In this document: positions 6,255 to 35,385 of the stretch, in pieces | Layout: every line of letters begins with the position of its first letter | Position numbering within the stretch: position 1 is the first letter of the stretch | Assembly (NCBI GenBank): GCA_977020255.1 | Contig: CDROCS010000983.1 | Location: 186,001 to 250,000 of the forward strand | DNA length: 64,000 nucleotides | Origin: Obrimoposthia wandeli | Taxonomy: Eukaryota | Direction: 5' to 3' | Position numbers and translations under genes: made by a program | The notes under the pieces: generated by a model | Seen by the model: the letters and a program-made list of their open reading frames with translations, nothing else | The model's database searches: none | Told to the model about the DNA's origin: nothing

Positions 6255-7347
6255 CTACAATCGCTGACAAACCTCCCCTAATTGAATGGGAAGACAACTA
6301 TTTATATTAACAGTTGATGCTGGTGCTGCTGATGTTGAGGCAATCGCAGCTGATGTAGTAGGTGCTGCCGCATATGATGAGACGATGGCGCTTGTAGATG
6401 CTGCATTTGAGATTAGAGTAGATGAGGTAGTAGCTGGCATTGCCGACGGAGAAGCAGCTGTTGTAGAGGTTGATGATGCATCTGCTGAAATAAATATATT
6501 AAAAATATATATATTTTTAAAAATTATTACCTCTAAGGCGTACAAACATAGATGTAGGCACTCGCGATGGGGGAGGCATAGCAGTCGTAGCGGATGACGG
6601 CGTCGGCTGTATTTCCTGAAAAAAAAAAAATATATATAATTACAATTTTAAAAAATAGTCAGAAAATAGTAATAAAAAAATACCTACTGAAGGCAATCCC
6701 GCTGTAGCTGGTTGAAAGTCCTCTTCATTGACGGAATCCATCCAGCTGTCGTCTGTTAACTCGACGAAATCGGATTTCTCGATGGTCTCCAACCGTTGTC
6801 GCTCCACTGAGACTGCTCCATCTCGAAATCTGACGGGGTGATATTTTCGATCCAGTCATTGTTCGAGAATTGGATTGCTGGCGCCAACTCTTCAAAATCT
6901 TCTTTGGAGATGTCGTTCATTCACTCATTGTTAGTTATTTGAGTGGATGAGGCCACTGCAGAATCGGGAGACGGGAGAGAAGGACAAATCGCAGGACCGT
7001 AAACGGGTTGAATGGCTACAACTGGAACAGGGGCATGAGCTGTAGCGACATGTGAATCGCGCACCAATTGCACGATAGCCCCCTTTTTGTTGTTGACCGT
7101 GAAACCGGGTAGGTGATCTCGATGTTCACTGAAGAAGTCTCGAAGTCCTTCTCCTCCATAGTTCTGCAGAAGGGGCAGACGAAGAATACCCGTCCTTGAG
7201 ATTTTATCCGATAGTAGGCGGACATTATGTCCATGCAGGAATCTCATCCTTGCGGAGCCGAAGCACCACAATAAGCAGGGTATAGGTTACACGTAATCTA
7301 AAAAAATTAATATTAATAAAGAAATAAAAAATAAAGTTTCTTACCAT
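6255..7347 (-). pseudogene. Intron-containing gene/pseudogene: Cys-rich N-terminus, acidic Trp-containing repeats, Ser/Thr/Ala-rich tail
   Basis: ATG at 7347 followed by 47-nt GT-AG intron (7298-7344); further introns 6616-6683 and ~6482-6530; CxxC/CPFCR motifs; in-frame TGA at 7244-7246 and apparent frameshifts; TATATAAG upstream. Confidence 0.55.
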
Positions 7348-11830: not shown

Positions 11831-12406
11831 AATCCTGACCAATTTGTCGGCAGTTGGTATCTACTCGATCAGGTATTGTATCCAGTTTCTGAATATCTAC
11901 ATTAGCAATATGTATCACAACTTAGTATCCATCGACGTCACTGCATGTTACTCTTGATCACCACTTGAACAGTATGCAAGAGCTCATGATATTCATTGAC
12001 AACGAATGAACCTGCAGATCATCAACATGGCCAAGAAGCGCTTTTCTCAAACTTCAAAACTTACCATAATGTCGAGGCTTACGAACGGGTAGAAATACTA
12101 GTATCTTGTGGCTGAAGTCAAGTCGAGGCTGTTCGATTGGGCAGCCTACGTTAATATGGTCTCATTGGGTGCATGGGTTCCTGGTAATCAAACAATGACG
12201 TGATTCTTCGATACCTGGGCTTGTTGCAAGGATCAATCGATTCACTGGCTAAATACTATGCGAGCCTTAATCAAGTGAAGTGAAGAGACCTGGCACCTTT
12301 ATCACGATAGCAGTTACTCGGTGCCGACATTTAGACTCAGCCCCTAGCTTAACTTATCTTTTTCGAGACTCCTATCTCATTCTTCTCTTTCTTTCTCTTT
12401 CTAACA

Positions 12407-13807
12407 ATGGCAGAACCAGATGAATTCTTGGTATCGGTCAATGGAGACCCTGTTAAAGTAACGGGAATATTACCATGTACATTTATAATTGGACGTAATA
12501 CGATCACTATACCAGTTAGAATCATGAAAGAATGTCCTGAACCTACAATTTTAGGAATGGATGTATTATCACAACTTAAAGGGATAAGTATTGATTTACA
12601 AGATCCAAGATTGAAGGATAGCACATCAAACAGACAAATAAACCAAATTGATGTAATCATAGAGAATCCTATAAAAATCGGTAAAAGATCGCAATTTCTT
12701 ATTCAAGGTCACACATTATCAGAAGATAAAGGACCAGTTGTGTTCGAACCATCACGAGATTTCATAGAGAAATACGAATTACCAGTTGTGAGTACAGTAT
12801 GCCTGATCGAAAATCACAAAATACCAGTTAGACTGATGAATACAACCAACAATGACATCCTATTATACAGAGGAATGAGGTTGGGAAAGATAGCACAGAT
12901 GGAGAATCCCACCGTGTGTGCTATGAAACTCGATAAAGATACGAACGATTACGAAGAAATAGTAATCCAATCAGAAAGACTGACAACTAGAGAAAAGAAA
13001 CAATTACTTGATCTAATACATAAATTTCCGAAAGTAATTGCAAAAAATCCATATGACATAGGAGAAACACCTGTCATAAAACATACAATACCACTGACAG
13101 AAGACAAAGTAGTCAGAAGAAGACCATATCGAGTACCATTACAATTACAAGATGAAGTAAAAAGTCAGATTGAAGATATGTCTAAAACAGGAGTAATTAG
13201 ACCGAGTTTTTCGCCATTCTCAGCACCTGTGGTGTTGGTAAAAAAGAAGGATGGGAAAATGAGATTCTGTATAGATTTCAGAGAACTGAACAAGATCACA
13301 AGAAAAGATGTGTATCCATTACCTAGAATCGAAGAGATGCTCGATAAATTGGGTAATTCAGATTATTTTACGACATTGGATTTGCAGAGTGGATACTGGC
13401 AAATCGAGATAGAGGAAGAGGATAAACACAAAACAGCCTTTTCCTGCGGAGATGGATTATACGAATGCGAAAAGATGCCATTCGGACTGACAGGAGCTCC
13501 AGCAACATTTCAGCGTTGCATGAATTTTGTACTCGCATCGTGTGCAAACACGATGGTTTATATCGATGACATAATAATATTTTCGAAAACGTTCGAAGAA
13601 CATTTAAAAAATCTTGAAGTTGTATTTAAAAGACTGGAAAATGCTAAATTAAAAGTTAAACCTACAAAATGCGTATGGGCTAAAGAGCGAGTAACATTTT
13701 TAGGACATATAGTATCGAAAGAAGGCATTCGACCTGATCCGGCAAAGATCGAGAAAGTAAAAGCGCATTTAGCGCCAAAGACTGTTAAAGAGATACAGAG
13801 TTTTTAG
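12407..13807 (+). CDS. pol: Pol, N-terminal part: retropepsin C-terminal half, dUTPase-like spacer, reverse transcriptase
   Basis: SVNGDPVKVTG flap and ILGMDVL; RRRPYRVP, PFSAPVVLVKKKDGKMRFCIDFRELN, LDLQSGYWQI, MPFGL, YIDD; ends at a 1-nt frameshift in T5 (13801-13805) where QSFLGLANYYRRF is expected. Confidence 0.95.
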   Translation: MAEPDEFLVSVNGDPVKVTGILPCTFIIGRNTITIPVRIMKECPEPTILGMDVLSQLKGISIDLQDPRLKDSTSNRQINQIDVIIENPIKIGKRSQFLIQGHTLSEDKGPVVFEPSRDFIEKYELPVVSTVCLIENHKIPVRLMNTTNNDILLYRGMRLGKIAQMENPTVCAMKLDKDTNDYEEIVIQSERLTTREKKQLLDLIHKFPKVIAKNPYDIGETPVIKHTIPLTEDKVVRRRPYRVPLQLQDEVKSQIEDMSKTGVIRPSFSPFSAPVVLVKKKDGKMRFCIDFRELNKITRKDVYPLPRIEEMLDKLGNSDYFTTLDLQSGYWQIEIEEEDKHKTAFSCGDGLYECEKMPFGLTGAPATFQRCMNFVLASCANTMVYIDDIIIFSKTFEEHLKNLEVVFKRLENAKLKVKPTKCVWAKERVTFLGHIVSKEGIRPDPAKIEKVKAHLAPKTVKEIQSF

Positions 13808-13863
13808 GTCTTGCAAATTATTATAGACGATTTGTTGAACATTTTTCAGATATAGCAACACCA

Positions 13864-16800
13864 TTGAGAAAGTTGACGAGAAAAGATGAGAAGTTCATAT
13901 GGGGAGAAGAAGCCCAACAAGCGTTCGAGCATTTAAAAGAAAGATTGATAAAAGCACCAATATTAGCGTTTCCAGATATAAACCGACAATTCATACTTAT
14001 GACAGATGCAAGTAACTATGCTGTAGGAGCAGTATTGGGACAAGAGGATGACGAAGGAAGAGAACACGTCATCGCGTATGCGAGTAGAGGATTAAACAGA
14101 GCCGAAAGAGGATACTCTGTTATCGAAAAGGAATGTCTAGCCATAGTGTATTCGTGTAGACAGTACAGACACTATTTGCTAGGACAAAAAGTATTCCTGT
14201 ATACAGATCACAAACCACTACAGTTCTTATATAAACATAGAGATGAGATGAGTAGATTAAACAGATGGTTTCTAAAATTGGCCGAATTCGATCTAGAAAT
14301 CCGTTATAGAACCGGAAAGTCGAACGGCAACGCAGATTGTTTATCGAGATTGACAAATGTAGACGAGAAAGGAAACATAATTCCAGAAGAAGATGAAACC
14401 AATGACCAAAAAGGAGAAGCAAATCTACTGACGATTTTGCTAAAGACGGGTAAAATAGACAAAGAGATCATCAAAGAACAGAAAGAAGACGAAGAACTGA
14501 GTCTAATCAAAGAATTGTTGGTGAAAGGAGATCTAAACGATGAAATGACGAAAAAATACTCGATAAAAGAAGGAATCTTGTATATTGTCAATAATGTCGG
14601 AAAGATAGTAGTAGTAATTCCGAAGTCATTGAAACCAGCAGTGATGATCCAGTATCACGACGGAACACTAGGAGGACATCTGTCAGGGCGAAAGACAATA
14701 GCCAGAATCAAAGAGAAGTACCATTGGGATGGTATGGAAGACGACATAAAACAATGGTGTAAACAATGTAAAGTATGTTTAACCAGAAAAGACACCGGAA
14801 CTCGTACTAAAGTTCCGTTGAAACCAATGCCAGTTCCTTTGGCACCAATGGAATTCACAGCGATGGATATATTGGGACCATTGAGAGAATCAAGTAAAGG
14901 AAACAAGTATGTCATAGTATTTACGGATTACATGACGAGATGGGTAGAAGCATATCCCATGCAGAACCAGAAAGCTGAAACAATAGCGCAAATCTTAGTA
15001 GAAGAGATAATATTTCGATACGGAGTGCCTAGAAAGTTGTTAACGGATCAAGGTAAGAACTTCACTGGAGAAGTCATAAAAGCAGTATCGAAGATATTCG
15101 GAATCATGAAGTTACAAACTTCACCATATCACCCACAGACAGATGGTCTGGTAGAAAGGTTTAATAAAACTTTATGTATGATGGTACAATCCTATTGCTC
15201 AGATAAGCAAGAGGATTGGGATAAATATTTACCTTCATGTTTATATGCTTACAGGAATTCAGTTCGAGAGGCGACAGGTCACACACCATTCTATCTGATG
15301 TATCTCAGACAGAACAATATGCCAATGGATCTGGAATGGACCGAGCCAACATCTCAGTACCTAGAAACTGAACAATACATTGTCGTCATGAAGGAAAGGT
15401 TACAAGATGCTTGGACCAAAGCCGGATTGAAGTTGAAATTCAATCAAGAAGGTTACAAGGAACAATACGACAAAAAAGCAAAACCGCATGAATTTAGAGT
15501 CGGAGATCAAGTGATGATATTTTATCCAGTCATCGAACCAGGTCTATCGTTTAAACTTCATAGACCATACAAAGGACCATACAAGGTGATCCAGACAACC
15601 TCAACAAATTTGAAAGTAATCAACGAAGAGAATCGGAACAAGGAACCGATGATTGTACATGCAAATCGATGCAAATTAGTACCAAATAAAGATAATGCGT
15701 CACGATATGAGTTAAGATCACAGAAATCGAAATCGAATACCAATACCATTAAACTTACACGAATGGTAAGTGATCGGAACTACATAAACACGATGACGAG
15801 TGGTAGCGAGGAAAAACCAGCGAGAATTGGTATGCTCAGAATGAAGTACCAAGAGGAAAAGGAAGTAATCCGACACATCGCACCACAAGAGATATTAGAA
15901 GAAGACGAAGAGATAATAGTTGTTTTCGAAAAAACACAACCAACAGATGTGGCGAAAGAAGTCATTGTGAAAGATGCACTGACAAACGAATTTCTATGCG
16001 AACTTAGAGTGTCATACTACGACGGAAATACATTAGTCGCATCACTATATCAAAATTCCAATGTGTTTACGACTGAGAAAGTGATAATCGAAATCACATT
16101 GACACCAAACATAGTTGCATGGCAGAACTATGACAATACTGAAGCAGGACTAGCCAGTCAGGAAGAGAAGGAACCGGCCGGTGGTCACATACTGCATGGT
16201 ACACCAAAAAGACTCAAACAAGAATACCACGATGTAATAATGGTATTACGTAATTCACATGGGAAAAGAGATATCATGAGAGTCCATTTAATCGACGCTG
16301 ACACTGAAAAGATAATTTGTCAGATGGACACCAAATACTTTGATGGAAAGACAATTGTATGTTGTATACCAGAATCTCACCGATTAGAGACAGATCAAAC
16401 GGAAGTATCTGTAAGGTTGAGCGTAATAGAAGGATTCCATTCGCCAACCCATCCGGAAGTGACTAACAATAAAATCATCAAAGCAACGGCAGAGTTACGC
16501 ATTGACAGCGGATACCGGAAGTGGGAGGCTAAAAATAAAAAGCCACAAAGAATCAATATGATCCGAGAACAAGTGACCAACTCAATCCAGCCAAAATATC
16601 ATGCTGAAATAGTATCATCCGCGCCAAGTGTAATCACATCGATAAACGACGAAATTATAATTTTACTAAAAAATCGATGGCCGTCATCAACCGAGATACG
16701 AGTAAATTTAATTAATTATGCGAAGACACCGATATCTAAGCTGAATGTTACCTATTTTGATGGATTGTCCATCATGGGTAAATTAGAAACAATTGTCATG

Positions 16801-17280
16801 TGCTATGGAGCACAGTTCCAAGTTGAGATACTTAAAGATAGTGTAATACCGTATCCGATTCACAAATACGAAGGGGAAATCAATCCAATTATTCTAACAC
16901 CTTCATTAATTTCAGTTCAGACAGACATACCAGAATACCCTTCGAGCGAGTCTAGTGAAGACAGCGAACCGGAAAGTAACGATACAGAATCAACAGAATC
17001 CGAAGATAACATAATAGAGCGATTCGGAAGAACCATGGAGATTGAATTCGCTAAAGAGAGCAGAAAAAGACAAAACATAGAATTCGTGAAACAGAATATA
17101 CAAGAAAGACGAATTAAATCTGCAGAGGAGACCGAGTCGGAAGAAGACTCAACAAAGGAACAGACATCAGAGACAAAGATGAATATCCCTCCAGCAATAC
17201 GAATGCTGAGAGGAAAGAAACTGGCAAAACTAACTAACATCGACGAACAGATAGAAGAGATTAGAAAGACTAAAACTTGA
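13864..17280 (+). CDS. pol: Pol, C-terminal part: RT connection, RNase H, integrase (HHCC, DDE, GPY/F) plus ~500-aa extension
   Basis: TDASNYAVGAVL, EKECLAI, TDHKPL; H-x6-H...C-x2-C; MDILGPL, TDQGKNF, GLVERFNKTL; YKGPYKV; frame is open from the frameshift at ~13806. Confidence 0.95.
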   Translation: MRKLTRKDEKFIWGEEAQQAFEHLKERLIKAPILAFPDINRQFILMTDASNYAVGAVLGQEDDEGREHVIAYASRGLNRAERGYSVIEKECLAIVYSCRQYRHYLLGQKVFLYTDHKPLQFLYKHRDEMSRLNRWFLKLAEFDLEIRYRTGKSNGNADCLSRLTNVDEKGNIIPEEDETNDQKGEANLLTILLKTGKIDKEIIKEQKEDEELSLIKELLVKGDLNDEMTKKYSIKEGILYIVNNVGKIVVVIPKSLKPAVMIQYHDGTLGGHLSGRKTIARIKEKYHWDGMEDDIKQWCKQCKVCLTRKDTGTRTKVPLKPMPVPLAPMEFTAMDILGPLRESSKGNKYVIVFTDYMTRWVEAYPMQNQKAETIAQILVEEIIFRYGVPRKLLTDQGKNFTGEVIKAVSKIFGIMKLQTSPYHPQTDGLVERFNKTLCMMVQSYCSDKQEDWDKYLPSCLYAYRNSVREATGHTPFYLMYLRQNNMPMDLEWTEPTSQYLETEQYIVVMKERLQDAWTKAGLKLKFNQEGYKEQYDKKAKPHEFRVGDQVMIFYPVIEPGLSFKLHRPYKGPYKVIQTTSTNLKVINEENRNKEPMIVHANRCKLVPNKDNASRYELRSQKSKSNTNTIKLTRMVSDRNYINTMTSGSEEKPARIGMLRMKYQEEKEVIRHIAPQEILEEDEEIIVVFEKTQPTDVAKEVIVKDALTNEFLCELRVSYYDGNTLVASLYQNSNVFTTEKVIIEITLTPNIVAWQNYDNTEAGLASQEEKEPAGGHILHGTPKRLKQEYHDVIMVLRNSHGKRDIMRVHLIDADTEKIICQMDTKYFDGKTIVCCIPESHRLETDQTEVSVRLSVIEGFHSPTHPEVTNNKIIKATAELRIDSGYRKWEAKNKKPQRINMIREQVTNSIQPKYHAEIVSSAPSVITSINDEIIILLKNRWPSSTEIRVNLINYAKTPISKLNVTYFDGLSIMGKLETIVMCYGAQFQVEILKDSVIPYPIHKYEGEINPIILTPSLISVQTDIPEYPSSESSEDSEPESNDTESTESEDNIIERFGRTMEIEFAKESRKRQNIEFVKQNIQERRIKSAEETESEEDSTKEQTSETKMNIPPAIRMLRGKKLAKLTNIDEQIEEIRKTKT

Positions 17281-17293
17281 AGAGTCAGAATTA

Positions 17294-17791
17294 ATGCCAC
17301 AAATGAGTGAGATCATTCCAGGTAAGTTGTACCTCGGAAATGTGGAGGATGCAACAGATGAAAAGAAACTGTTGGAACAAGGGATAACATATGTGATCAA
17401 CGTTACAATGAATCACAAATCGCAATATCAGACGATCAGAGCTATGACATTAAGAGTAAAAGACTCAATGGATGCTAATCTTCTCGAATGGTTCGTAGAA
17501 ACAAACGAAATACTTCACAGAGAACTCCGAAACCAAGGAAAAGTGTTGGTACATTGCCAGAAAGGAATTTCTCGATCAGCAACTCTAGTATTAGCATATC
17601 TAATAAAGACTAGACGAATGCAGGTACTAGAAGCGCTAAAATACCTACAGGAGAGAAGAAGTATTGCAAACCCAAATCTTAATTTTTGGGACAGTTGGCA
17701 AATTACCAACTTCTGTTGCAAGAACAAAGACGGATGGACGACATTCCTGAGGATCCAAAGGAAAAGAATTTCCTCCAAGCATTATCACTGA
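17294..17791 (+). CDS. Dual-specificity protein phosphatase domain (catalytically intact motif), frameshifted into the next ORF
   Basis: SEIIPGKLYLG, VINVT, general-acid D in VKDSMDANL, HCQKGISRSAT (HCx5R), AYLI, NPNLNF; adding 1 T at 17683-17687 gives NFLGQLANYQ continuing into 17686-20133. Confidence 0.9.
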   Translation: MPQMSEIIPGKLYLGNVEDATDEKKLLEQGITYVINVTMNHKSQYQTIRAMTLRVKDSMDANLLEWFVETNEILHRELRNQGKVLVHCQKGISRSATLVLAYLIKTRRMQVLEALKYLQERRSIANPNLNFWDSWQITNFCCKNKDGWTTFLRIQRKRISSKHYH

Positions 17792-20133
17792 CTGGGTTAT
17801 TTTTAGCCGGAGTCGATAAAATTACACAGATAATGCCAAAAGTATTTTTATGTCATCCAGGAGATATAGATACTGCTGGATTAAAGTTCCATAGTATCAA
17901 CCGAGTAATCAACATTGTTGAAGTCGGAAACGAAATAATTAGTCTGTGTCAAAATACTGAAGATGACACCACTCGATACATACATGCTTCCAATCGAGAG
18001 ATAAACGATGCACAACAACATCTGACGAAATTGACTCAAACCATCCAAGCTGAAGTCACAGAAGGAAACGGCGTTCTGATATATCAGAAAAAAGGTACAA
18101 TGTTAGCGCCTACCATAGGTGTATCCTTGTTGGTAGAGTACCATGGTCACACGCCAGAAGAAGCAATGGTCTACATCAAACAGAATAGACCGAATACGGA
18201 ATTCAAACCGTTACTCGTTCGAGAAATAGAGAAATACACCGAAAAGAGGAAACAACAACGAGAAACAAATGAAGCTACAACAACAGTGCCCAGCTTTCAA
18301 TACCAAAGATTGCTAGCGATAGGCTTGTTAAGTTGTTTAATGCCGATAACGGGAGCACAGGAGATAGGCTCCAACCACGGAAATAGTTCCTGGTTCAACG
18401 AAATCCACAATTACACCATAAAGTACCATACACCGGCACTGATGATGTTATTAGTGTTGTTAGAACTAATTGATGTATGGATCATCCGAAAATGTCTTCG
18501 ATCTATGAGAACCGACAGTAAAAGATTTCAGTTTGTAAAGATGAAAAGACCAAATGGACCAACAAACAAAGTGCTTGTGTATCTAGACGAAAGGATCGAG
18601 GACAACATAGTAAATGAAGCGATATTTTACCCACAAAACAGAATACTGAATCAATTTCGAATAGATTACGAAGCTGACCGACAGCGCACACTTGACCAAA
18701 TATCAACAACATTCGCTGGATGCAAGCAGAAGAAAACGAGTTGTAAAGGAAATACAAAAGATGCTGATACAAAAGGACCAACGTATATATTCGATGGCGA
18801 TGTCATCAAAACACGTGAGTATGGAAGTAAAAGAGTGATAATTGAAACAATGGAAGGACATAAAACATGCTTGTCCGCCAAAAATGGATTCGGAAAGTTG
18901 ACGATACAAGGTAAACCAGTACAGTTGATTATCGGACGAGATGGAATCGAGGAAATGTCAAAACAACGACAGACAACAAAACGAACCAATCAGAAACAGA
19001 TATCTCTCAAACGATTGATAATTAAAACCCTTTGCAAAAGGTCAGTCAAGGCCCTGTGCACCGTTGCACAAGGATTGATTTATGGAGTAGTAATTGGATT
19101 GGTACTGCAAGCCATGCCAACCAGTAAAGCCGAATTGATGACACTATCCGAATATAATTTACATTTGAGAAATCTAGACAACACCCTAGAAATAATCAAG
19201 ACATCCCACAGTAGAGCCGTGATGATCATGTGTGTAAAAGGATGTCCAGGACGAATGTGTATAGTCCCAGCGACCGAAATGATAACACTTAATGGACATT
19301 ATGGAGTTAGTGTTGTCACATGTGAAGACTACATATTTGGACAAACTAAAATAGTGCTTCTCAGTGACATGTCCAACCAAAGTGCACACAAATTTAAAAT
19401 ATTAACCATCAAGAGTAAAGGAATACCAGCAGTACGTTACGGTATTCTAGAATTGGTTAATCCAATACTCGCACTGATCATTGGATTTATAATATTAATA
19501 TTACTCATCTTGTTTTGTTGTTCAAAGATAGAGTCGAGATCAAAAAAGAAACGTCATGATCTCGCAAGACGAACAGGTCAAATGAACTTACAAAAATTCA
19601 ACACAATTATACCAAGACCACCATTTTTAGATGAACCAGCACCAGAGTACCAGCCAACGATATACGAACACATCGAGGAAAGACCGTACTATATGAGTAA
19701 TTTGACTTGTTTCATTGAAGTTCCTGAGTTTAGGAATCGAACGATCATAGGAATCATGCTGATCGTACAAATCACCACTACCAAGGCTAGTTATGAGATC
19801 ATGATCAGTAAATGGAGACAAGACGTAATACGGGCAATATACATAGAAATTCCCCTACTAAAAACAAATCACGTAGTAGACATTCATCTACAGACGTCAG
19901 CAACTGACAATATCGATCAGAAATTGTATGTCATTCGACAGGTCAGAATAAAAATCGACCAAGATACACCCGTTTACAATTTAATATTATTGCATCATGA
20001 AAGAGTGTTATACCTACGGATAACAATATCAAAGAGGAAGCGGATTATCCAAAGTATCCGAACAAAGTCATTAATATTACCTAGAGATGAGCGCATCTGG
20101 AAAAATTGTCGACAGGATTATGATCACAGGTAG
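17686..20133 (+). CDS. Accessory polyprotein: pseudo-DSP domain followed by signal-peptide/ectodomain/TM modules
   Basis: 17821-18237 aligns by eye with the DSP (ITQIMPKVFL; YQKKGTML in place of HCQKGISR); hydrophobic segments at 18307-18357, 18436-18486, 19075-19131, 19465-19521, 19741-19788. Confidence 0.75.
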   Translation: MGQLANYQLLLQEQRRMDDIPEDPKEKNFLQALSLTGLFLAGVDKITQIMPKVFLCHPGDIDTAGLKFHSINRVINIVEVGNEIISLCQNTEDDTTRYIHASNREINDAQQHLTKLTQTIQAEVTEGNGVLIYQKKGTMLAPTIGVSLLVEYHGHTPEEAMVYIKQNRPNTEFKPLLVREIEKYTEKRKQQRETNEATTTVPSFQYQRLLAIGLLSCLMPITGAQEIGSNHGNSSWFNEIHNYTIKYHTPALMMLLVLLELIDVWIIRKCLRSMRTDSKRFQFVKMKRPNGPTNKVLVYLDERIEDNIVNEAIFYPQNRILNQFRIDYEADRQRTLDQISTTFAGCKQKKTSCKGNTKDADTKGPTYIFDGDVIKTREYGSKRVIIETMEGHKTCLSAKNGFGKLTIQGKPVQLIIGRDGIEEMSKQRQTTKRTNQKQISLKRLIIKTLCKRSVKALCTVAQGLIYGVVIGLVLQAMPTSKAELMTLSEYNLHLRNLDNTLEIIKTSHSRAVMIMCVKGCPGRMCIVPATEMITLNGHYGVSVVTCEDYIFGQTKIVLLSDMSNQSAHKFKILTIKSKGIPAVRYGILELVNPILALIIGFIILILLILFCCSKIESRSKKKRHDLARRTGQMNLQKFNTIIPRPPFLDEPAPEYQPTIYEHIEERPYYMSNLTCFIEVPEFRNRTIIGIMLIVQITTTKASYEIMISKWRQDVIRAIYIEIPLLKTNHVVDIHLQTSATDNIDQKLYVIRQVRIKIDQDTPVYNLILLHHERVLYLRITISKRKRIIQSIRTKSLILPRDERIWKNCRQDYDHR

Positions 20134-20596
20134 ACGACGTAAAGCCGTATGGAATTCCGTTAGGTTATTTTTCAGATTGCTAGAAACTGACAGCGTGACA
20201 GTAATGTGTCCCAACCCAGATGGCGTAATCAGATTCGAAATCCAAAGCCAAATGTTAGTACCACATTTCAACACAGAATGTCTGTGTAATCGAATTGCCA
20301 GTAATTCTACAGAGACCTCGACCATAATCATGATAATAACAGGTGAAATATTCTACATAACTCTAAGATACCAGAACCGTCGATTTCGTAGATACGGTAT
20401 AAGTATCAAACCCAGGAAAATCATTCCCAAAAGACCAAGCCTCGTCATACAGAAGGCAAAAGTAAACGAAAGTAAACGACATTCCAAGAAACCGACAGTG
20501 ATCAAAACAAAGACAGAAGCGAAAGAAAAAGAGCTAAATCCCAGAAACCAAAGTACAATTATTAAGAGGACAAGAGTGAGGGAACGATCCCACTAG
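20087..20596 (+). CDS. Probable frameshifted continuation of the accessory polyprotein
   Basis: Overlaps both neighbours; same A-rich codon style; no recognisable domain. Confidence 0.5.
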   Translation: MSASGKIVDRIMITGRRRKAVWNSVRLFFRLLETDSVTVMCPNPDGVIRFEIQSQMLVPHFNTECLCNRIASNSTETSTIIMIITGEIFYITLRYQNRRFRRYGISIKPRKIIPKRPSLVIQKAKVNESKRHSKKPTVIKTKTEAKEKELNPRNQSTIIKRTRVRERSH

Positions 20597-20973
20597 ATCC
20601 AAAACATCATTTTCAATCCAAAATAATAATACCTGTTCCACCAGAAACAAAACACCCAAATCCCCGAATTTTTAGAAAATCGGACATAATACATGGAAAC
20701 CGATCAAAACCCATGGAAATGTCATTCGAACCGACAAACAACAAAATGAAGTATGATTATAAATCATCAGACAGCGGAATAACAGCGGTCAATGCCCTAA
20801 TTGGAATGGCCGTAGTGTCAACAGCAGTGGTTTTATTGACAATCGTGTGCGTAAAAGGCAGTCAAGTATGCCCAGGAATACGACGAAAATGCGAAGGATT
20901 GCGATGCTGTGACACACCCATCATGGAGGAAGTGGAATTGCGACCCTTACCTCCGCCTCCCATCAAGATATGA
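20566..20973 (+). CDS. Terminal segment with TM helix and Cys/Pro-rich tail (ATG at 20713; frame open from 20566)
   Basis: ALIGMAVVSTAVVLLTIVCV (20794-20853) followed by CPGIRRKCEGLRCC and LPPPP. Confidence 0.6.
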   Translation, partial: EDKSEGTIPLDPKHHFQSKIIIPVPPETKHPNPRIFRKSDIIHGNRSKPMEMSFEPTNNKMKYDYKSSDSGITAVNALIGMAVVSTAVVLLTIVCVKGSQVCPGIRRKCEGLRCCDTPIMEEVELRPLPPPPIKI

Positions 20974-21096
20974 TGAGTCAGAGGAGGTTGTAGATAAATT
21001 AGTGTGTGAAATATGTAGAAATATCTAGAAGCGATTGTACAAATAGTAGAAGTATATAAAACTCATGTAGAAATTAATCATCATCATGTATTTAGA

Positions 21097-21396
21097 ATGG
21101 CCGAAGAATGCCCAATATGTTTAGAAGATCTAACCGAACGAAGAACAAGACCCGAAACCTGCAACCATTTACACCACGAGGAATGTTTATCGACATGGAT
21201 CAGAACTTATGGACAGTTCGGACACCCAACATACCCTCGTTGCCCTATATGCAGAAGACAATTCGCAAGATTCGTCATGTTAGAACCCAACCAAAGGGAT
21301 GTATATGTACAGGTGGTATTCTGCTGGAAGAATTTCGGAGAGTGTTGGTGTTATTACTGTTTGTCAGATCGACAAAATCAGACCATTTTTGTGTAA
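21097..21396 (+). CDS. RING-H2 protein 1 (putative E3 ubiquitin ligase)
   Basis: CPIC...CNHLHHEEC-LSTW...CPICR = C3H2C3; extra C-x6-CWC-x2-C motif. Confidence 0.9.
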   Translation: MAEECPICLEDLTERRTRPETCNHLHHEECLSTWIRTYGQFGHPTYPRCPICRRQFARFVMLEPNQRDVYVQVVFCWKNFGECWCYYCLSDRQNQTIFV

Positions 21397-21456
21397 AGAT
21401 CACACAACCACCAGTCCTCAATCGAGCCCAAATTCAACATCAACCCTCCCACAGTA

Positions 21457-21762
21457 ATGTCTGGAGAATGTTCCATCTGCTACGAGAGCATCGTGGACTT
21501 CTACACCAAGCCCAACAACTGCGACCACCTTTTCCACGTCGAATGCCTCGAGACGTGGATCCCCATCGCAAACAGCAACAACCCTCTCGACTTCCCAACC
21601 TGCCCGATGTGCAGAGCGACCTTCTCAGTACACTACGTGTACAACCAAGACAGCCTCCAAGCAGTGGTACCCATCGTACACTGCTGGAAAACCATCTGCG
21701 ATTGCTGGTGCTCGTTCTGCGTGGAGGAGCGAAGCACAGGCCAGCCCAATCCCCAACAATAA
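21457..21762 (+). CDS. RING-H2 protein 2 (putative E3 ubiquitin ligase)
   Basis: CSIC...CDHLFHVEC-LETW...CPMCR; extra HCWKTICDCWCSFC motif, paralogous to RING 1. Confidence 0.9.
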   Translation: MSGECSICYESIVDFYTKPNNCDHLFHVECLETWIPIANSNNPLDFPTCPMCRATFSVHYVYNQDSLQAVVPIVHCWKTICDCWCSFCVEERSTGQPNPQQ

Positions 21763-22095
21763 TCGAAGGTAACTTTCTGACTTGAACGTGACATCATGAA
21801 CTACCCTGTGTATCGCATACCGCGATAAATTAGCTACCATAATTGTAATCATAATTATAGAATCTTGTGAACTGTAAATTGACCATTACCATTTTTATGT
21901 ATGATGTTTAACTGAAATTGTAATTATTATACTGAATTTCTAAAAAAGACAATTTTTATGCTTAGTGTGAATGCGTAAACATGCCTAAAATCGAAACAAA
22001 ACTCGGTAGGATTAGATAACTAAGGATTCATTTTGAAATAAAATTTAAATTAACGATGAGAACGGTGAACCCCAAATTGAAGGAGTCATTTTCTC

Positions 22096-22632
22096 ATGCA
22101 GATGTTGTGCTCCGTATGCATGGAGAAGATTTGGGCGGTATCAGCATCCCCTGTCGGCTGCCGTCACAAATTTCACGAGGAGTGCCTCTATTTGTGGACC
22201 AAGGTTCGAACCTCCGGACAAATCACCTGTCCACTGTGCCGGACACCCTTCGCCAAATGGACACTCCAGAGCCGCGGAAGACACAAAGGCACCCGATCGC
22301 CTGCCAGCTGCATTGGTGGCATCCATTGCCAATGCTACGTGTGTCTCGCACGCCGGCGCGACACACAACTGGGCGTCCGCGAGAGATGGCGGTCTAGTCG
22401 AGACTGCCACTCGTGGTTCCAGGCCAGACGGCACTGGATTGAAAGCCATAACATGAACGGGCAGCAGTTCGACCTATTCATCGACAGCCCGCATTTGACC
22501 CGGAGCCAGCAACTCCATTTGTACAACGGGGACAGTCCGTCCTTTCCCGACCTTCCCCTGGAGCAGGTTCTACGCTACCTGACCAGTCGGAACCAGCCGA
22601 CAATAACAATTGACCTGACACATGAAAACTGA
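22096..22632 (+). CDS. RING-H2 protein 3 with C-terminal SIM-like motif
   Basis: CSVC...CRHKFHEEC-LYLW...CPLCR; CIGGIHCQCYVC; ends ITIDLTHEN. Confidence 0.85.
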   Translation: MQMLCSVCMEKIWAVSASPVGCRHKFHEECLYLWTKVRTSGQITCPLCRTPFAKWTLQSRGRHKGTRSPASCIGGIHCQCYVCLARRRDTQLGVRERWRSSRDCHSWFQARRHWIESHNMNGQQFDLFIDSPHLTRSQQLHLYNGDSPSFPDLPLEQVLRYLTSRNQPTITIDLTHEN

Positions 22633-23362
22633 CACTGTCCTCCCTTCTTTCCTTCCTAATCTGTAATTTTGTGTGTAAATTTTTAGTTGTGTATAAATAA
22701 TAGTGTATGGTTTGAGACTTGCTCCAAATTATATATTATGTTTCCCACTGGAAAACCGAGATTTTGAAAAAATTTTTTTGGGCATGTTTGTTGAAGTTGA
22801 ATGATTGATTTTGTAGGGATGAACCTAAAATCAACAGCCAAGGGCTTATTTAAGTAAAATCGATACGTTCCGGGGACGTAACTTTTTTGGAACCCCCGAG
22901 GTATGTTAAGGTTGAGAATTAAGAAAATTAAATATTTTAGTTGATTAAATACTAAAATAAAAATCCTTGAAAGCAAGGTCGAAAATTAAATTAAAATATT
23001 AATTTGAGTTTTAGAAGTAAAATTAGTGAAATATTAGGGTAAAATTAGGAGGACCACGAAGGTCGTGTATTATGCGAAAATATATAAAAGTTTAAAGTTA
23101 ATTAACAAAAGGGACAAAAATAAGAATTTAATTAAAAGAAAAACGGTTAATTAAAACCGTCAATCAAGAAAGAAAAAGGTAAGCACATTTTCGTGCAGTA
23201 AAATCAATTTAATTCTTTTCAGCTGTCGTTGACTGACAGGAAGAATTGAGATAGCCTCTGCTCCAGCAAATAACCGTCAATCAAGGAAAAAGTGAGCGCA
23301 TTTTGTGCAGTCAATAATTTTTAAATTTATTTCAGCTGTCGTTGACTGACAGGGATAGAAGC

Positions 23363-23370
23363 TATAAAAG
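23363..23370 (+). promoter_or_regulatory. TATA box in LTR U3
   Basis: TATAAAAG followed ~25-35 nt later by TCA-containing initiator-like sequence. Confidence 0.55.
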
Positions 23371-23436
23371 GCAGAGGATTTGGACACCAATTCACAATCA
23401 CAAATTCAGAATCACTCCCTGACTACAGGTTGAGCG

Positions 23437-23633
23437 GAATAGACTCAATCCGAAAATAACGAATAGACTCAATCCGAAAATAACGAATAGACTCAATCCG
23501 AAAATAACGAATAGACTCAATCCGAAAATAACGAATAGACTCAATCCGAAAATAACGAATAGACTCAATCCGAAAATAACGAATAGACTCAATCCGAAAA
23601 TAACGAATAGACTCAATCCGAAAATAACGAATA
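23437..23633. repeat. 24-bp tandem repeat GAATAGACTCAATCCGAAAATAAC x8 (perfect)
   Basis: Eight identical units counted from 23437 to 23628 plus a partial. Confidence 0.95.
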
Positions 23634-23764
23634 AAATATATCCGAATAGCCGCGATCCAACATATTAGGAGAAGACGATCTCACGAGCGCTCCATACGGA
23701 ACTGCGTCGGACAGCTCACCCGTACCGGAATCAGCGAGTCACTGGTAAGAACACAGACTAGGTT

Positions 23765-24202
23765 CATTCATTGCCCCTAGTAGGCAATTAGGATATATTC
23801 ATTACCCCTAGTTGGTAATTCTATATTTTCTTAATAATACACAAATTCATTGCCCCTAGCTGGTAATTAGGATCACTGCCTCTTTACCACAATCATTGCC
23901 CCTAGTTGGTAATTAGGATCGGACCTTTATTCATTGTCCCCAGCGACAATTAGGAAACCTACCAGACGTTTTTTCCCGTAAGATTCATTGTCCCTAGCTG
24001 ACAATTAGGTTCATTCATTGCCCCTAGTTGGTAATTCGGATAAATATTCATTGTCCCTAGTAGACAATTCGGTAAGACTCATTGTCCACTAGCTGACAAT
24101 TCGGTTCGTTCATTGTCCGTAGTTGACAATTAGGAGTAAGTTTTTATTGTCATCTTGACAATTAGGTTTTTAGGAGATCCCTTGTCTACAGTAGACAATT
24201 TG
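23765..24202 (+). repeat. Array of 12 hairpin-forming repeats (ATTGYC-N5-8-GRYAAT) with variable spacers
   Basis: Copies at 23770, 23801, 23849, 23895, 23933, 23987, 24017, 24050, 24081, 24112, 24146, 24181. Confidence 0.9.
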
Positions 24203-24471
24203 GGTCAAACACACACAGAGAGAGTAAGGAACAAAGAAACATTTAGCTAGAGATAAGAAGTAGGAGCGAAGAAATTTAAGAGAGTTGCGTTATAGATTAA
24301 CCAACCTGAGTAAGAAGACTAAACCTAAGAAACTTAATCACCTGAACGTAAAATCGATACGTGGTTCATCCCCACTTCTTGTAGAGACTCACAGAAGTCC
24401 TTTAGGAATTTTATCATACTTTTTAGAAATACGTACATAAACGTATTGTGGTGTTAGTTACGTGAATTTTG

Positions 24472-24477
24472 AATAAA
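24472..24477 (+). terminator. Polyadenylation signal in LTR
   Basis: AATAAA followed by conserved ATTTCCTACATTAG; same arrangement at 28316 and 34569. Confidence 0.65.
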
Positions 24478-25429
24478 CAATTTCCTACATTAGAACAAGT
24501 TGTTTTTACACCCTTCAGACTAAGAGACATCAATCAAATACCTTCAGATAGTACAAGAGATTAGGCAACCATAACACTAAGTAGGCCACGACCAACTTTA
24601 AGACCTGCTTCTAATCGAACTCACGTTGGGGCCCTCCGCACACTAAGAGGCTCTATACCAAGTTTCGTATAGAAACCCCAACAATTTTATGACAAAATTA
24701 TATGAAATTCTTTATTATTTTCTTTAAACTAAAAGAAATATTTAAATTAAATTAATATAGATTTAGTCAATTTTACTGAAATATGTAAAGATTTTCAGTT
24801 TTTATTATTTATTTAGATTGTTGAATTAGTGTTTAATTATATTCTTTCATTTGTTTGATCTAAAATAGGGAGAATTTGACAATTGATGTACTACAAAATT
24901 GTGTTTACATTAAATATACATATATATATATATATATTGAACTATGGCATTTAAACAGTCCTCTCTTTTTTACTTAAGAGATAAATCTGAGATAATATTT
25001 TGATTTTATGTTTTCAATTTGTCATGTGATTTCAGTTAATCAAATTGAAAAGCTAAAATGGCTCCAACTGATCAATGTATTTTTATCGTTCCTCAATAAC
25101 TGTAAATATTACGTCGATAATTTTGTACAAAGAGTATGGATGTTTAAATTGCCTGTGACCTGTCAATTGATAAAACTCTACGTCCACTTACAAAATGAAG
25201 CGTACATGGCCTTCCTAAATCAGGTAGAACACAAATTTGTGATGAAAAGAAAGTTTAATACGATCTTTCTTTGTGTAAAATTCTAGTACATTAATAATAA
25301 AAACTTTCCATGAGCTACAAATCCCATATTACGGAATTAAATTACACGAAAGCGAGCTGGGTTAAAAGATTGCCGAATCAAATTGGTTCATGGACCAAAA
25401 GAAGATGAACATCTTGATGTGAAACGTAT

Positions 25430-29950: not shown

Positions 29951-32815
29951 TTCTAATATTTTGATAAAACAAACATTAATTATTAAAGTAATTAACTAGA
30001 AGTCCCAATATATTAAGAAACTTATAAAAGATGCAGTTTATTGCAAGTAAAAATTTCGTTAATCAAGATGAATTGTTGAAATAAATTAAAAAAGTGTACT
30101 AGTGCATTTATGAAATAATAGAAAAAATATATTTCGTAAATTATTTAAATTTATTTTTGAATTGTTTTAATATTTAATTATAAATCAGGGATATTTTATG
30201 TAAGTTTTGTTGAAATTTAGTTTTTAAAATGGGGTTTAAAAAGGTAGTAAATTGTGTTTTAGAAATTCGTTAAATCATTTTGACACGAAATTCGGTTACA
30301 CATTTTACTTCAAAATATTTATATTTCGTTTAACTTGAGAAACTACAAGAACAGAACCTTTAAGAATAATATTATCTCTAAAGTTAAGTATTTAATTTCA
30401 TATTTTTAAATCAAAGATTGAAACAAACAGATAATTTTTTAGATTTTTAAAGAAATATAAAATGTTAAAGGAAATTGACGCCGACTTAAATTCCATATTG
30501 CCAGTCTAATCCTCAGCCAATATTCATTAATTATTCCCAATTGTGTTTCTAATTATCGGTTTCTTAAATAATCTATCATTTCTAAATTGAAATTATGTCA
30601 AATTGTTTTACTTTGTGTAGAGAAATACACTTTACATTTGCTTTGATAATTTTGCTCTTAGCTCGACTGAAATCTGTACCCTGTTTTCATTTAGTCAGCT
30701 TATGTTATATTAGTTTTCGTTTTACATTTAAAAATGAGCCTTCCAATTTATTATAATTTCAGTTTCATTTTTAAAAAATCATCATATAATGAAAACAATA
30801 GTTAATTATTTGAAATTAATGATTTTGGTTTTATATTCAAAATTTGTTTGCAAATGCAACCGAAAGTTTGTATATATATAGTTTTTTTAAAAATATTTTT
30901 ATTTGTACCACTATTTGGGAGAAAAATGAAATCTTACAAAAGAAAATTCCAATCGGTATCCTTCAATATTAATTATTTTAAAATTAAAATTAAATCATAA
31001 ATATATGGCCTAAAATTTGTTTATATACATGTATTTAAAGAAAAATAAGTAATAATTAAAAAAAAAATTGATCTAAGATATATTTCAAATTATTTCGTCT
31101 GCATTTCATAACGATTTTTTATTCACTATTACTATTTAGTCACAAATTTAATTAAAAGTCACAATAAAATAAAATATTATCCAAATTATTTCGTAGGATA
31201 TAATGACCAAGCTTACAATGAGTAATTATTTTCTAAATATTTTCTATACTTCAGATTCTTGTCAACAAATGTGGTGATTTTTGGACAATCAAGTAATTGT
31301 TTTTATTATTATTTGGTGAAACTGAACTGCCGAAGACAAATTTCAATCAGATTTTATCTGTCACACTAAGAACAATCATGGTGAACATTCAAGAATTTTA
31401 TCAATTTCTATGTCTAGAGATGACTTTACAACACTTCAAATTTGTTACTTTGTGTCATCGGGAAATTTTATCGGAAAAATATTATATGTTGCTTATAATC
31501 TTTTTAACTTATTGAAAAAATTTATGAAATATAATGAATTGATAATTAATATAAATTATAAAATGAAATCCTCAATTTATAATTTGGTATAGTTTAAAAA
31601 TGACAATTTAAAAATTAATTAAGAATATTTTATAAATAAAATTTTGTAAGTATTTGAAGCCTTTTGTAGCTTTTGACAAATGATCTCAATCAAATTCAGT
31701 TAATTTATTTTATTTAATTAATAAAAAATACAGTAATAATCAAGTATTATTTGAATTTTAATAGATAATTTCTATGTTTGATTACAAGATAAGGTCATTC
31801 ATTATTATTTACTTCAAAAAACATTTCTTAAAACTAAAAACAACTTTTAAAATGAAATAAAACGCATATTCAATGTTACTATTAGATTTAGTTTGATATA
31901 TATTAATATAACTAATGTAAAAAGATATCCTACATATACAAATTTTGGCAATTTAAAACAATTTAATAAAATTTTATTTGATTGTTAGTTCAAATTTTCT
32001 CAATGCATATAGAATTAAATAATAAAAAAAAATATACGTGTTATATTTTGAAACAAAGTAAAATATGATCTATAAATTATAATTGGTCATAATTGTTATG
32101 GTATTAAAATAAATTAGATCTACCCAACTCTGTGTGTCAAGCTAATAATGTTACATCCGATACCAATTGAACTGTCCTAATGTAATAGTTCAATGTAACA
32201 TATCTCAAACTCAGATTTACATTTTTTTTAATATACCCTATTCCTGTTTCTTTTCTATGATAATATTTTTTACCTTTCAAATGATGGGCTTGTATTTTTG
32301 GATTAATTACAATCGAATGCTTTTTCGTCGATATATTATGTTTTACTAGATCTGTTTTACCTTTATTCCATTTGTTTTGCATAAAAATCTCTCAAATTTT
32401 ATAATAGTTTAATCTATAATTTTATTTTTTCCAAAGTTTAATTTTAAAAATACATTAAATTCTGTTAGAAAATTAATACCACAAATAACAGAATAACAGA
32501 ATAACAATCTCTTTTCAATTGATAAATCTACACTTGGCCTCGTATCTTATAATCAATTTTGTTTCATTTACTATACGACATTACATATTCCATACTCATT
32601 CACATTCGGTGTTTAAATGTAATATTTCATTATTTCTAAGTTAGAAATTCTAATAAAGAACCTTGAAAATTAAAGAAATATCCGAATTTTACGATTACAT
32701 ATTTTCAATTTTAATTGCAAAAATAACACATCAACATTAAAACTTTCATTTTAATGAAAAATGTTTTTGTTGGGATAGTTTTGCTTCTTGATTACGACAC
32801 AAAATAGTTTAAAAT

Positions 32816-34779
32816 TGTTAGGTTTAGGAATTAGAAAATTAAAATAATTAGTCGATTTTATACTAAAATAAAAATCCTTGAAAGCAAGGTTGAAAATTAA
32901 ATTAAATATTAATTTTAAAAATCAAAACTAAAATTATTGAAATTAAGATAAAAATTAGGAGGACCACGAAGGTCGTGTATAGTGTGGAGTATATAAGGTT
33001 AGAATTAATTACTAGTAAAGTGCAAAAGGGAACAATATAGAAATCTGCCAACGTCAGCAGAAAAAAGAAAAACTACTAACGTCAGCAGAAAGGTAACCAA
33101 TTAATAAAACATCTGTCAATTACTGATATTTAAGGAATCAGTTGAATTGACAGGCAGGCAGAAAAACCCAGTGACAATTAGGATCGGTCGAAGCAGCAAC
33201 CGGAGCAACAGGCAGGTGGTAATTTAGTGGTAGTGCTCGTTTAATTGATTTTTAGATCCCATTCCAAAGTCGACTGTGCAAATTATTTAAAAGAGACATT
33301 TAACTGGAAAACCCAACGACAATCAAAGTCGACTGTGCAAATTATTTAAAAGAGACATTTAACTGGAAAACCCAACGACTAGAAAAATCCATCGAATTAC
33401 TAAGCAGCGGATCCAGTGCCGGAGTATACCCACAGTTGCGGATAGGTGAGACGATTCGAATATTCATTGTCCCTCGTTGACAATTAGGATTGTAAATTGT
33501 CTCGAATATTCATTGTCCCTCGTTGACAATTAGGATTGTAAATTGTCTCGAATATTCATTGTCCCTCGTTGACAATTAGGATTGTAAATTGTCTCGAATA
33601 TTCATTGTCCCTCGTTGACAATTAGGATTGTAAATTGTCTCGAATATTCATTGTCCCTCGTTGACAATTAGGATTGTAAATTGTCTCGAATATTCATTGT
33701 CCCTCGTTGACAATTAGGATTGTAAATTGTCTCGAATATTCATTGTCCCTCGTTGACAATTAGGATTGTAAATTGTCTCGAATATTCATTGTCCCTCGTT
33801 GACAATTAGGATTTAATTGTCTCGCATATTCATTGTCCCTCGTTGACAATTAGGATTTAATTGTTTCGCATATTCATTGTCCCTCGTTGACAATTAGGAT
33901 TTTTGTCTCGCATATTCATTGTCCCTCGTTGACAATTAGGATTTTGTCTCGCATATTCATTGTCCCTCGTTGACAATTAGGATTTTTGTCTCGCATATTC
34001 ATTGTCCCTCGTTGACAATTAGGATTTAATTGTCTCGCATATTCATTGTCCCTCGTTGACAATTAGGATTTTTGTCTCGCATATTCATTGTCCTTCGTTG
34101 ACAATTAGGTTCACGAAATCATTGTCCATCGTTGACAATTAGGTTTTATACGAATCATTGTCCACAGTTGACAATTCGCGTTTGAATTCACAACAATAGA
34201 ATTTGCCGAGTTAAGAAAGCTTTACCCACACGATCTAAGTTAAGTTGAAGAAGTTTTAGGAGAGTTGTGTTATAAATTAACCAACCTAGAAAGAAGATTT
34301 GCATTCGCACCTTTATTGTCATAAGAATAAAGGTTTAACCTCCAAAATTCAAGCCGATAGCAAAGTTAAATTATTGAGAAATCTGTAGCGCGAGCTTATT
34401 CTCGAGTTAGAAGAATAACTCTAAAATCTCGATCACCCCGAACGTAAAATCGATACGTGGTTCATCCCCACTTGTTGTAGAGACTTACAGAAGTCTTAGG
34501 AACTTTTAATATATTTTTTAGAAAATACGTACATAAACGTATTGTTGTGTTTAGTTTCGTGAATTACCAATAAACGATTTCCTACATTAGAACAAGTTGT
34601 TTTTGCACCCTTCAGATTAAGAGACGTCAAAACAAACACCTTCAGATAAGAAAGAGAGATAGGCAACTATAACACTAAGTAGGCCACGACCAACTTTAAG
34701 ACCTGCTTCTATTCGAACTCACGTTGGGGCCCTCCACATTCAAGAGGATCTGTACAAGTTTCGTATAGAAACCCCAACA
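32816..34779 (+). mobile_element. Solo LTR C (1964 bp)
   Basis: TGTTAGG...CCCCAACA with 4-bp TSD AAAT (32812-32815, 34780-34783); ends closely similar to LTR A; 60-bp internal duplication at 33264-33380. Confidence 0.92.
33458..34175 (+). repeat. Tandem array of 17 hairpin repeats (core CATTGTCCCTCGTTGACAATT), 46-bp unit degrading to 44/42/41 bp
   Basis: Cores at 33463 then every 46 nt to 33785, shorter spacings afterwards; ATTGTC/GACAAT inverted arms. Confidence 0.95.
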
Positions 34780-35385
34780 AAATCACAAATACGTTTAAAA
34801 AGATTTAAATTATGATTTTATGTCTAAATTTAATTAAATTATTACTGTTTTTAAATAAAATTTATATATCAGAATCTGATGTAGATACTAAAGAGATTAT
34901 TATGGAAAATAATATTACAGATATAGATTATTTGAATCTTACTAAACTGCGAGCTTAAATACGTGGCTCTCAAAATATTTAAAATATGGAATTTTTTAAC
35001 TTTTTTGTATATTAGCTAGAATGATGCTATTTCGATAAAAAATTTAAATCTATATTGTATTTGTCACCTTCTAATATATAAATTGAAAATTATTTATTCT
35101 TAGACCATTTTATATTTAATCAACTTCTGTTAAGAAAATGATATACTGAATAATATTTTATCAAAAACTACTTTGAAAAAAATGCTTCAAAGAAAAATTT
35201 GTGTGAAAATATATTCTTTAAACTTATTTATCATAAGAAAAATTGCCAAAGTCTAAAAATCGAAAATAATCTCATAACATACTACAAGTTTTGATGATTT
35301 GTCATAAATATTATCTGCAAGTGTTGTGGTGTAAAGTCCAGCTGGATTTTCTGTGCTTTGGTGCAATTGAATAAATCATTCCATA

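Follow-up and report, generated by a model that had tools for sequence, protein, structure and literature searches.

Why a retrotransposon should carry two phosphatase domains in tandem, one of them without its catalytic residues, is the question raised by a 64,000-nucleotide stretch of the Obrimoposthia wandeli genome (GCA_977020255.1, contig CDROCS010000983.1, positions 186,001 to 250,000, forward strand), called here the window. A preliminary description, made from these letters alone, had placed an active dual-specificity phosphatase (DSP) and a dead one, hereafter DSP1 and DSP2, inside a gypsy element. We find that a live/dead phosphatase tandem inside a Burro-like giant retroelement is real and selected. 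The anatomy of the element and of the pair can be given with near certainty. The reading that we favour is that the pair is a selected cargo which, after release, acts on host stress mitogen-activated protein (MAP) kinases; we give this mechanism, taken whole, a probability of roughly 0.45.

An intact and an inactive phosphatase domain

DSP1 has the sequence features of an active DSP, namely a D-loop Asp, an HCxxGxSR P-loop and an N-loop Asn. It matched Pfam DSPc with an E value of 1.6e-33, and alignment with 26 other DSPs placed the acid Asp at 17462, the Cys at 17555 and the Arg at 17573, so that the intact P-loop and general acid first read from the sequence are borne out. Its best match in the PDB was DUSP10/MKP5 (E 1.5e-24), the other best solved relatives being DUSP4, DUSP1, DUSP2 and DUSP16. 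DSP1 and DUSP10 have in common the N-loop PNLNFxGQL and the catalytic triad, and the F-X-F position reads L-N-F in both. The catalytic domain is thus like that of the MAP kinase phosphatases, or MKPs (DUSP10/MKP5, DUSP8/16, DUSP1/4), and sits in a retroelement polyprotein instead. Among the young and intermediate copies of the element described below, Asp and Cys were kept in 77 of 77 and Arg in 76 of 77; most of 34 old copies keep all three.

In DSP2 the three catalytic positions are replaced by Asn (17992, acid), Gln (18085, nucleophile) and Leu (18103, Arg), and the P-loop reads YQKKGTML. This loop had been noticed earlier together with the DSP signature, and both hold; the change at the acid position goes beyond the loss of Cys and Arg. 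Leu occupies the position of the P-loop Arg in 107 of the 109 copies read (Ile in one, Val in one), none of the copies sampled shows Cys or Arg at these places in DSP2, and DSP2 lacks an acid Asp. The fold was examined in several ways. A phmmer search with DSP2 over 1.84 billion representatives returned only two proteins (27% identity), each of which has its DSP motifs intact; the ESM Atlas placed DSP2 in DSPc clusters at 0.95, and the ten best family matches all agreed. An AlphaFold (AF2) model built from a DSP alignment reached a pLDDT of 81.9 and a pTM of 0.80, and Foldseek matched it to MKP4, SDP1, DUSP8 and DUSP10 at a TM of about 0.7. This model was steered by the DSP alignment, and the Pfam, phmmer and Atlas tests, which do not depend on our own alignment, agree with it. 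Single-sequence folding of the DSP1-DSP2 tandem failed (pLDDT 38). The two domains are 21% identical. Judged from sequence and modelling, DSP2 is a pseudophosphatase that keeps the DSP fold and has lost all three catalytic residues.

What might a dead domain do? To our knowledge, STYX and MK-STYX (STYXL1) are not fused to an active DSP. The preliminary description had compared the pair with these proteins, and noted that active/inactive pairs can act as substrate traps or regulators; as a trap, DSP2 would bind phosphorylated substrates in its dead active site. Like DSP2, they have a DSP fold with the Cys replaced, and the two Lys of the DSP2 loop could provide positive charge; however, STYX-type proteins keep the P-loop Arg in a G-I-S-R sequence (PMC9464862, in the text available), whereas the loop of DSP2 ends G-T-M-L and the acid Asp is missing as well. 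The loss of this Arg makes a phosphate trap highly unlikely and the analogy weak.

A closer parallel may be found in receptor protein tyrosine phosphatases (RPTPs), in which an active domain (D1) is followed by a dead domain of the same fold (D2), as in DSP1-DSP2, although RPTPs have the classical PTP fold. Cdc14 also combines an inactive and an active domain of the DSP fold, the inactive domain being N-terminal. Neither comparison implies homology beyond the fold. D2 domains serve in substrate recognition and in the regulation of D1, according to the available text of PMC9464862. By analogy, a docking or regulatory role would fit the conserved linker and the dead loop of DSP2 better than a trap.

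The pair belongs to a Burro-like giant gypsy element

This region is part of a giant gypsy long terminal repeat (LTR) element that is Burro-like and bears an Env. Protease, reverse transcriptase (RT), RNase H and integrase lie in this order between LTRs with TG...CA ends, as in Ty3/gypsy elements, and the copy on C2592 is flanked by a 4-base target-site duplication. This full copy measures 23.2 kb and its LTRs are 99.7% identical, and it is therefore a recent insertion; a full copy on C374 measures ~23.8 kb, with LTRs 93.9% identical. A site just 3' of the 5' LTR (L048, G000:C2592 ~48225) resembles the 3' end of elongator tRNA-Met, and we take it to be the primer-binding site. The DSP1 P-loop pattern gave 6,088 matches in the genome and the DSP2 loop pattern 5,099 (reversed controls, 0 for both), counts to be read as at least these numbers in an assembly that may contain haplotype duplicates.

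The copy on C374, read as two pieces (L045, L044), encodes Gag with a CCHC knuckle, Env, protease, BIR, RING, a second protease, RT, RNase H, integrase, a beta-rich sequence and DSP1 and DSP2, followed by a tail in which four membrane segments are predicted. Env lies in frame between zf-CCHC and the protease (Monjiviricetes_fusion, PF24664, E 7e-94), and the BIR (PF00653, E 9e-8) and RING (E 4e-11) domains are within the same polyprotein open reading frame (ORF). Upstream of Env, weak ubiquitin-like (E 0.006) and Bcl-2 (E 0.096) matches were found. Pfam gave no dUTPase-like match in the protease-RT spacer, and no match to MATH, SMC or ankyrin at E 0.1 in the polyprotein. The longest open frames around DSP1 are 5,497, 4,994 and 4,523 amino acids. 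DSP1 shares the frame of Pol in copies that are open, the ATG at 17,294 being an internal Met, and in one such copy the C-terminal membrane part shares a single frame with both DSPs. It was observed in the C374 copy (L045, L044) that the BIR-RING module is flanked by two aspartic protease domains.

The window copy extends from 12,403 to 24,683. Its similarity to full copies starts at 12403, i.e. it is 5'-truncated, and its features, all on the forward strand, are as follows.

12403-13807 (+): second aspartic protease, spacer and RT, with a 5'-truncated start (RVT_1, E 5e-39; protease family in the same part of an open copy)
13789-17280 (+): RNase H, integrase, beta-rich sequence of ~420 amino acids and acidic segment (Pfam RT_RNaseH, Integrase_H2C2, rve)
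17197-17211 (+): I-x-M-[LI]-R motif, candidate protease cleavage site upstream of DSP1, suggested by its recurrence at domain borders
17294-17730 (+): DSP1, dual-specificity phosphatase catalytic domain (DSPc, E 1.6e-33)
17731-17814 (+): DSP1-DSP2 linker of 28 amino acids, strongly conserved (most copies of the old subfamily differ at 2 of its 28 positions)
17815-18246 (+): DSP2, predicted pseudophosphatase with DSP fold (DSPc, E 1.6e-6, under the curated cut-off)
18307-18357 (+): signal-peptide-like hydrophobic stretch after DSP2, seen by eye and not among the strongest hydropathy peaks
18358-20990 (+): C-terminal part of the polyprotein, four predicted membrane segments (hydropathy scan; best Pfam E 0.07)
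21019-21396, 21397-21762 and 22081-22632 (+): three separate short RING-finger ORFs (zf-RING_2, E 5e-10, 8e-9 and 1e-7)
22904-24683 (+): 3' LTR with TG...CA ends and internal tandem repeats, matching both LTRs of the full copies on C374 and C2592

Counting the three short ORFs and the BIR-linked domain, there are four RING domains in the element. Three similar-looking beta-rich stretches follow the integrase (window ~15790-16950; L044 4299-5438, minus strand), for which the Pfam scan gave no family. At 32800-34780 of the window lies what resembles a solo LTR, of a variant type that contains a 46-bp tandem array; at the protein level, the internal regions of elements with this type of LTR are 92-100% identical to those of the young family.

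The planarian element Burro/GYPSM1, as presented in the available text of a review (PMC6431247), resembles the present one in its single polyprotein of ~5,000 amino acids, CCHC-knuckle Gag, BIR domain and thousands of copies, and in an Env which lies in frame between Gag and Pol and is similar to mononegavirus fusion proteins. Ubiquitin/SUMO-like and BCL2-like segments would occupy matching places, if the weak matches found here are real, and the dUTPase-like domain that precedes RT in Burro-like elements had no counterpart among the Pfam matches in the spacer. Burro/GYPSM1 exceeds 30 kb, whereas the element described here is ~23 kb with LTRs of 1.9-2.1 kb. MATH, ankyrin and SMC are features of Burro-1/GYPSM1 unmatched here; conversely, the DSP and pseudo-DSP after the integrase and the three separate RING ORFs set the present element apart, and the portions of the review available name no phosphatase or DSP for Burro. 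No named Burro sequence was among the Pol-region matches listed (120 of 412).

Giant gypsy polyproteins from metagenomes (e.g. P0159, P0164, P0167-P0173, P0217, P0220) are 43-52% identical over protease-integrase and have the same Gag-Env-protease-Pol order with variable cargo (ankyrin, Ig, C2H2, ubiquitin-like). They differ in having no DSP, and no similarity from the third beta-rich stretch onward. HMM searches found no DSP among the 120 of 412 Pol-region relatives listed, about 20 of which are Env-bearing and of the same build; a rescan of 12 Env-bearing relatives again gave none, and other cargo such as ankyrin and Ig. The DSP pair thus looks lineage-specific. Several metagenome relatives carry two or three proteases. 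P0159, P0164, P0167-P0170, P0172, P0173, P0179, P0199, P0202, P0203, P0207, P0217 and P0220 are Burro-like, and this group may extend well beyond planarians.

Frame breaks between DSP1 and DSP2

The window copy has six frame changes (near 13,800, 17,255, 17,682, 20,100, 20,580 and 20,945). The break near 17,682, which precedes the last helix of DSP1, puts the two domains in different frames: ORF 17255-17791 holds DSP1, and the overlapping ORF 17683-20133 holds the last helix of DSP1 and then DSP2. Of the active/dead tandem proposed in a gypsy element, both domains, RT, RNase H, integrase and LTRs are present, but the two domains are not in one frame in this copy.

When the window's own DNA was used as a query, all 12 loci returned, ranked by likeness to the window, carried the same split. 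In contrast, 26 of 30 copies picked on the first 129 amino acids of DSP1 read through. In a set of 67 copies, 30 of which were chosen on the full DSPc score and so favour an intact junction, 56 had an open frame that ran from DSP1 as far as the DSP2 loop, and in 42 it reached the end of DSP2. The copy nearest to the window by sequence (0.12% apart) is without the break; among 12 copies that have it, another such copy is the nearest for only 4, i.e. breaks do not group by sequence. A programmed -1 frameshift between DSP1 and DSP2 was rejected on these grounds. Situated in single-base runs, the breaks look like independent slips, arising in replication or in assembly. Length variants were present at the same runs in short-read contigs, from which their frequencies are not obtainable. 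In other copies the frame often breaks at a single-base run near 18088, within the DSP2 loop; breaks at this run occur also in short-read contigs and are not clade-linked.

Both domains are under purifying selection

An older, decayed subfamily (75-87% DNA identity), reached through a remnant in L099, has the same live/dead pair; young copies differ from each other by ~2%. Simple counts were made of differences from one natural copy common to most of 16 old loci. Between young and old, dN/dS was 0.10 for DSP1 (dS 0.80, dN 0.08) and 0.078 for DSP2 (dS 0.56, dN 0.04). The corresponding values were 0.009 for RT, where the depth was only ~4, 0.03 for RNase H plus integrase, 0.11 for the beta-rich sequence and 0.24 for the acidic flank; pN/pS in the downstream segment was 0.33. 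Private and majority differences were distinguished with Fisher p values of 4e-7 and 2e-8 (rounded counts). Among variants present in at least 3 of 65 young and intermediate copies, which were not chosen on DSP2, 56 were synonymous and 10 non-synonymous in DSP2, and 52 and 12 in DSP1. Loci with <500 aligned bases in DSP1-DSP2 were excluded and bases within 3 columns of gaps were masked; 18 intermediate copies stand outside the two-group young/old table. L128, which is the same place as L124, was dropped from the residue counts and the 65-copy variant count, and retained in the counts behind the Fisher tests. DSP1 and DSP2 are both under purifying selection across subfamilies, the dead domain included. 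Since synonymous change was free, a cause at the RNA level is argued against. No deeper subfamily with an active second domain was present among the loci examined (75-99% DNA identity).

Constraint on DSP2 could come from folding alone. DSP1 would then be an active, host-directed enzyme. DSP2 would have no part in the choice of substrates and would serve simply as a folded spacer or stabiliser placed between DSP1 and the membrane region, as its lack of all catalytic positions and its 21% identity to DSP1 might suggest. However, DSP2 is as constrained as DSP1 (15 of 144 positions differ between subfamilies, versus 27 of 146 in DSP1; p 0.56), and there is hardly any variation in the linker or in the dead P-loop of DSP2, which points to a binding surface. 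We consider the spacer doubtful.

A short DSP2 remnant with a shared stop was seen at at least 17 places (L104-L120, 97-99% identity), apparently inside another repeat.

Origin of DSP1

The best public matches to DSP1 are 38-42% identical over the whole domain. A host-type P-loop pattern occurs at 13 places in the genome (control, 0), and two host exons, L161 and L166, both with upstream exons, are 57% identical to DSP1 over 60-65 amino acids; the 57% is for one exon and the 38-42% for the whole domain, so that different regions are compared. On the L161/L166 exons, vertebrate DUSP8/16 reach 41-48%, under the 57% of the host exons. A weak rhodanese-like exon (E 0.004) lies upstream of L166. 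By sequence similarity, the closest relatives found for DSP1 are intron-containing host DUSPs, and these matches are most simply explained by an old capture of a host MKP-like gene.

Searches elsewhere gave little. A scan of metagenome contigs with the tandem yielded 33 pattern matches, none confirmed; 61 proteins of 558-2,000 amino acids matched the tandem, each covering at most 56% of the query, and were mostly DUSP8/16. A phage collection contained one Mollyvirus DSP (30%). A full-text literature search, which did not reach the original Burro paper, its supplements or Repbase, found no DSP or pseudo-DSP in a retrotransposon.

Could both domains be passengers, DSP1 a recent host capture and DSP2 a decaying duplicate? 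Many copies are broken here and the young ones are only ~2% apart. Nevertheless, dS far exceeds dN in both domains, private and majority differences are separated by the Fisher tests, and no host exon closer than 57% identity was found. A recent DUSP capture free of purifying selection, named beforehand as one of two outcomes that would overturn the idea of a functional pair, does not agree with dN/dS values of 0.10 and 0.078; the other, a DSP2 that fails to model as a DSP fold, does not agree with the alignment-led model and the searches described above. The passenger explanation is largely refuted and we find it barely credible.

A possible action on host stress MAP kinases

In the mechanism that we favour, DSP1 would stem from an ancient, intron-free capture of a host MKP-like DUSP, lacking the rhodanese docking domain, which bears the kinase interaction motif (KIM); DSP2 would derive from a tandem duplication or a second capture. 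The protease of the element may free DSP1-DSP2 as a single unit, and the hydrophobic stretch after DSP2 perhaps holds this unit at a membrane or marks the release point. DSP2 would act as a non-catalytic docking or allosteric partner, like D2 of RPTPs, and the unit would dephosphorylate host stress MAP kinases (JNK/p38). It might keep element-expressing cells alive, assisted by the BIR-RING cargo and by a putative BCL2-like domain.

Release of the unit is suggested by the I-x-M-[LI]-R motif, a pattern chosen after seeing the sequence. It marks five domain borders, one of them immediately ahead of DSP1 and none separating the two DSPs (shuffle mean 0.13; 0 of 2000 shuffles reach 5); the pair may therefore be released together. 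A MAP kinase target of DSP1 is plausible, because its best solved relatives are MKP catalytic domains, and stress MAP kinases would fit since the MKP-like sequence is accompanied by inhibitor of apoptosis protein (IAP) cargo. We infer from this a damping of stress MAP kinase and apoptosis signalling. STAT had been named as another target, for which nothing in the analysis speaks.

Several points weigh against this mechanism. First, no KIM-bearing rhodanese domain was matched by Pfam in the polyprotein, and DSP1 has Leu at the position of the MKP allosteric Tyr (DUSP10 Tyr435, a feature taken from the available text of PMC13147768). As both the KIM/rhodanese domain and the allosteric Tyr are lost, the MAP kinase specificity of DSP1 is uncertain. 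Second, PDB and Atlas searches gave the BCL2-like domain no support beyond its match at E 0.096. Third, a tree of the C-terminal exon (38 rows, 68 columns) left 27 of 35 inner branches open and did not settle the origin of DSP1, and it neither established nor excluded a clade of DSP1 plus DSP2 (p-AU 0.42); of the comparison with host DUSPs that had been suggested, the identity to host exons gave a result and the tree gave no placement. Fourth, private differences have a dN/dS of 0.34-0.67, not 1; dN/dS was counted without transition-bias correction on copies that are not independent, the contrast being large; and selecting 30 of the copies by their protein identity to DSP1 brings down the value for this domain in the young family. 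Finally, in 25 of the 67 copies a break occurs before DSP2 is complete, and the release motif was defined post hoc.

The loss of the KIM docking domain and of the allosteric Tyr would also agree with a unit that serves the element's own cycle, by acting on Gag, integrase or another particle component, DSP2 being a particle-targeting or structural domain. The in-frame fusion to Pol would allow the enzyme to be made in step with integrase and to be packaged, and DSPs are present in many large DNA viruses. On the other hand, a DSP was found in none of the 120 Pol relatives listed and none of the 12 rescanned, so that it is not needed for replication generally, and the BIR and RING cargo of the same ORF is usually host-directed. 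We regard a role in the element's own cycle as unlikely, and keep to an action on host stress MAP kinases.

Other features of the window and the genome

A second kind of mobile element in this genome may carry a pseudo-DSP. L098 (G000:C3080:206469-216468) contains at 6901-7304 (+) a decayed DSP-fold gene with a degenerate P-loop (31% identity to DSP1 over 116 amino acids, HMM E 1e-13), between a TBP-like fragment and an ORF resembling, by eye, a Polinton/Maverick packaging ATPase. In the window, an intronless ORF of 307 amino acids at 54758-55681 (-) is by eye like a seven-membrane receptor and had no Pfam match at E 1. A repeat with inverted ends at 40682-43315 contains an acidic ORF of 286 amino acids (41862-42722, minus strand) of no known family; similar DNA is present at other loci.

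Significance

Extra enzyme domains that have become fixed are regarded as a rarity among LTR retrotransposons (PMC9289625, text available). The cargo of Burro has been linked to apoptosis and ubiquitination, and interference with host apoptosis is noted as an unconfirmed idea in the accessible part of PMC6431247. A small phosphatase with a standard assay makes this idea directly testable, and the dead domain offers a clear case of a pseudoenzyme under purifying selection in a mobile element, in thousands of copies of different ages. We suggest tentatively, as one possibility, that the element built a two-domain signalling enzyme, a DSP-fold counterpart of RPTP D1-D2, in which a dead DSP replaces the lost docking domain of an active, MKP-derived phosphatase and which, with IAP and BCL2-like cargo, would suppress stress-kinase and cell-death responses, aiding the spread of an element that is present in thousands of copies and may account for several percent of the genome.

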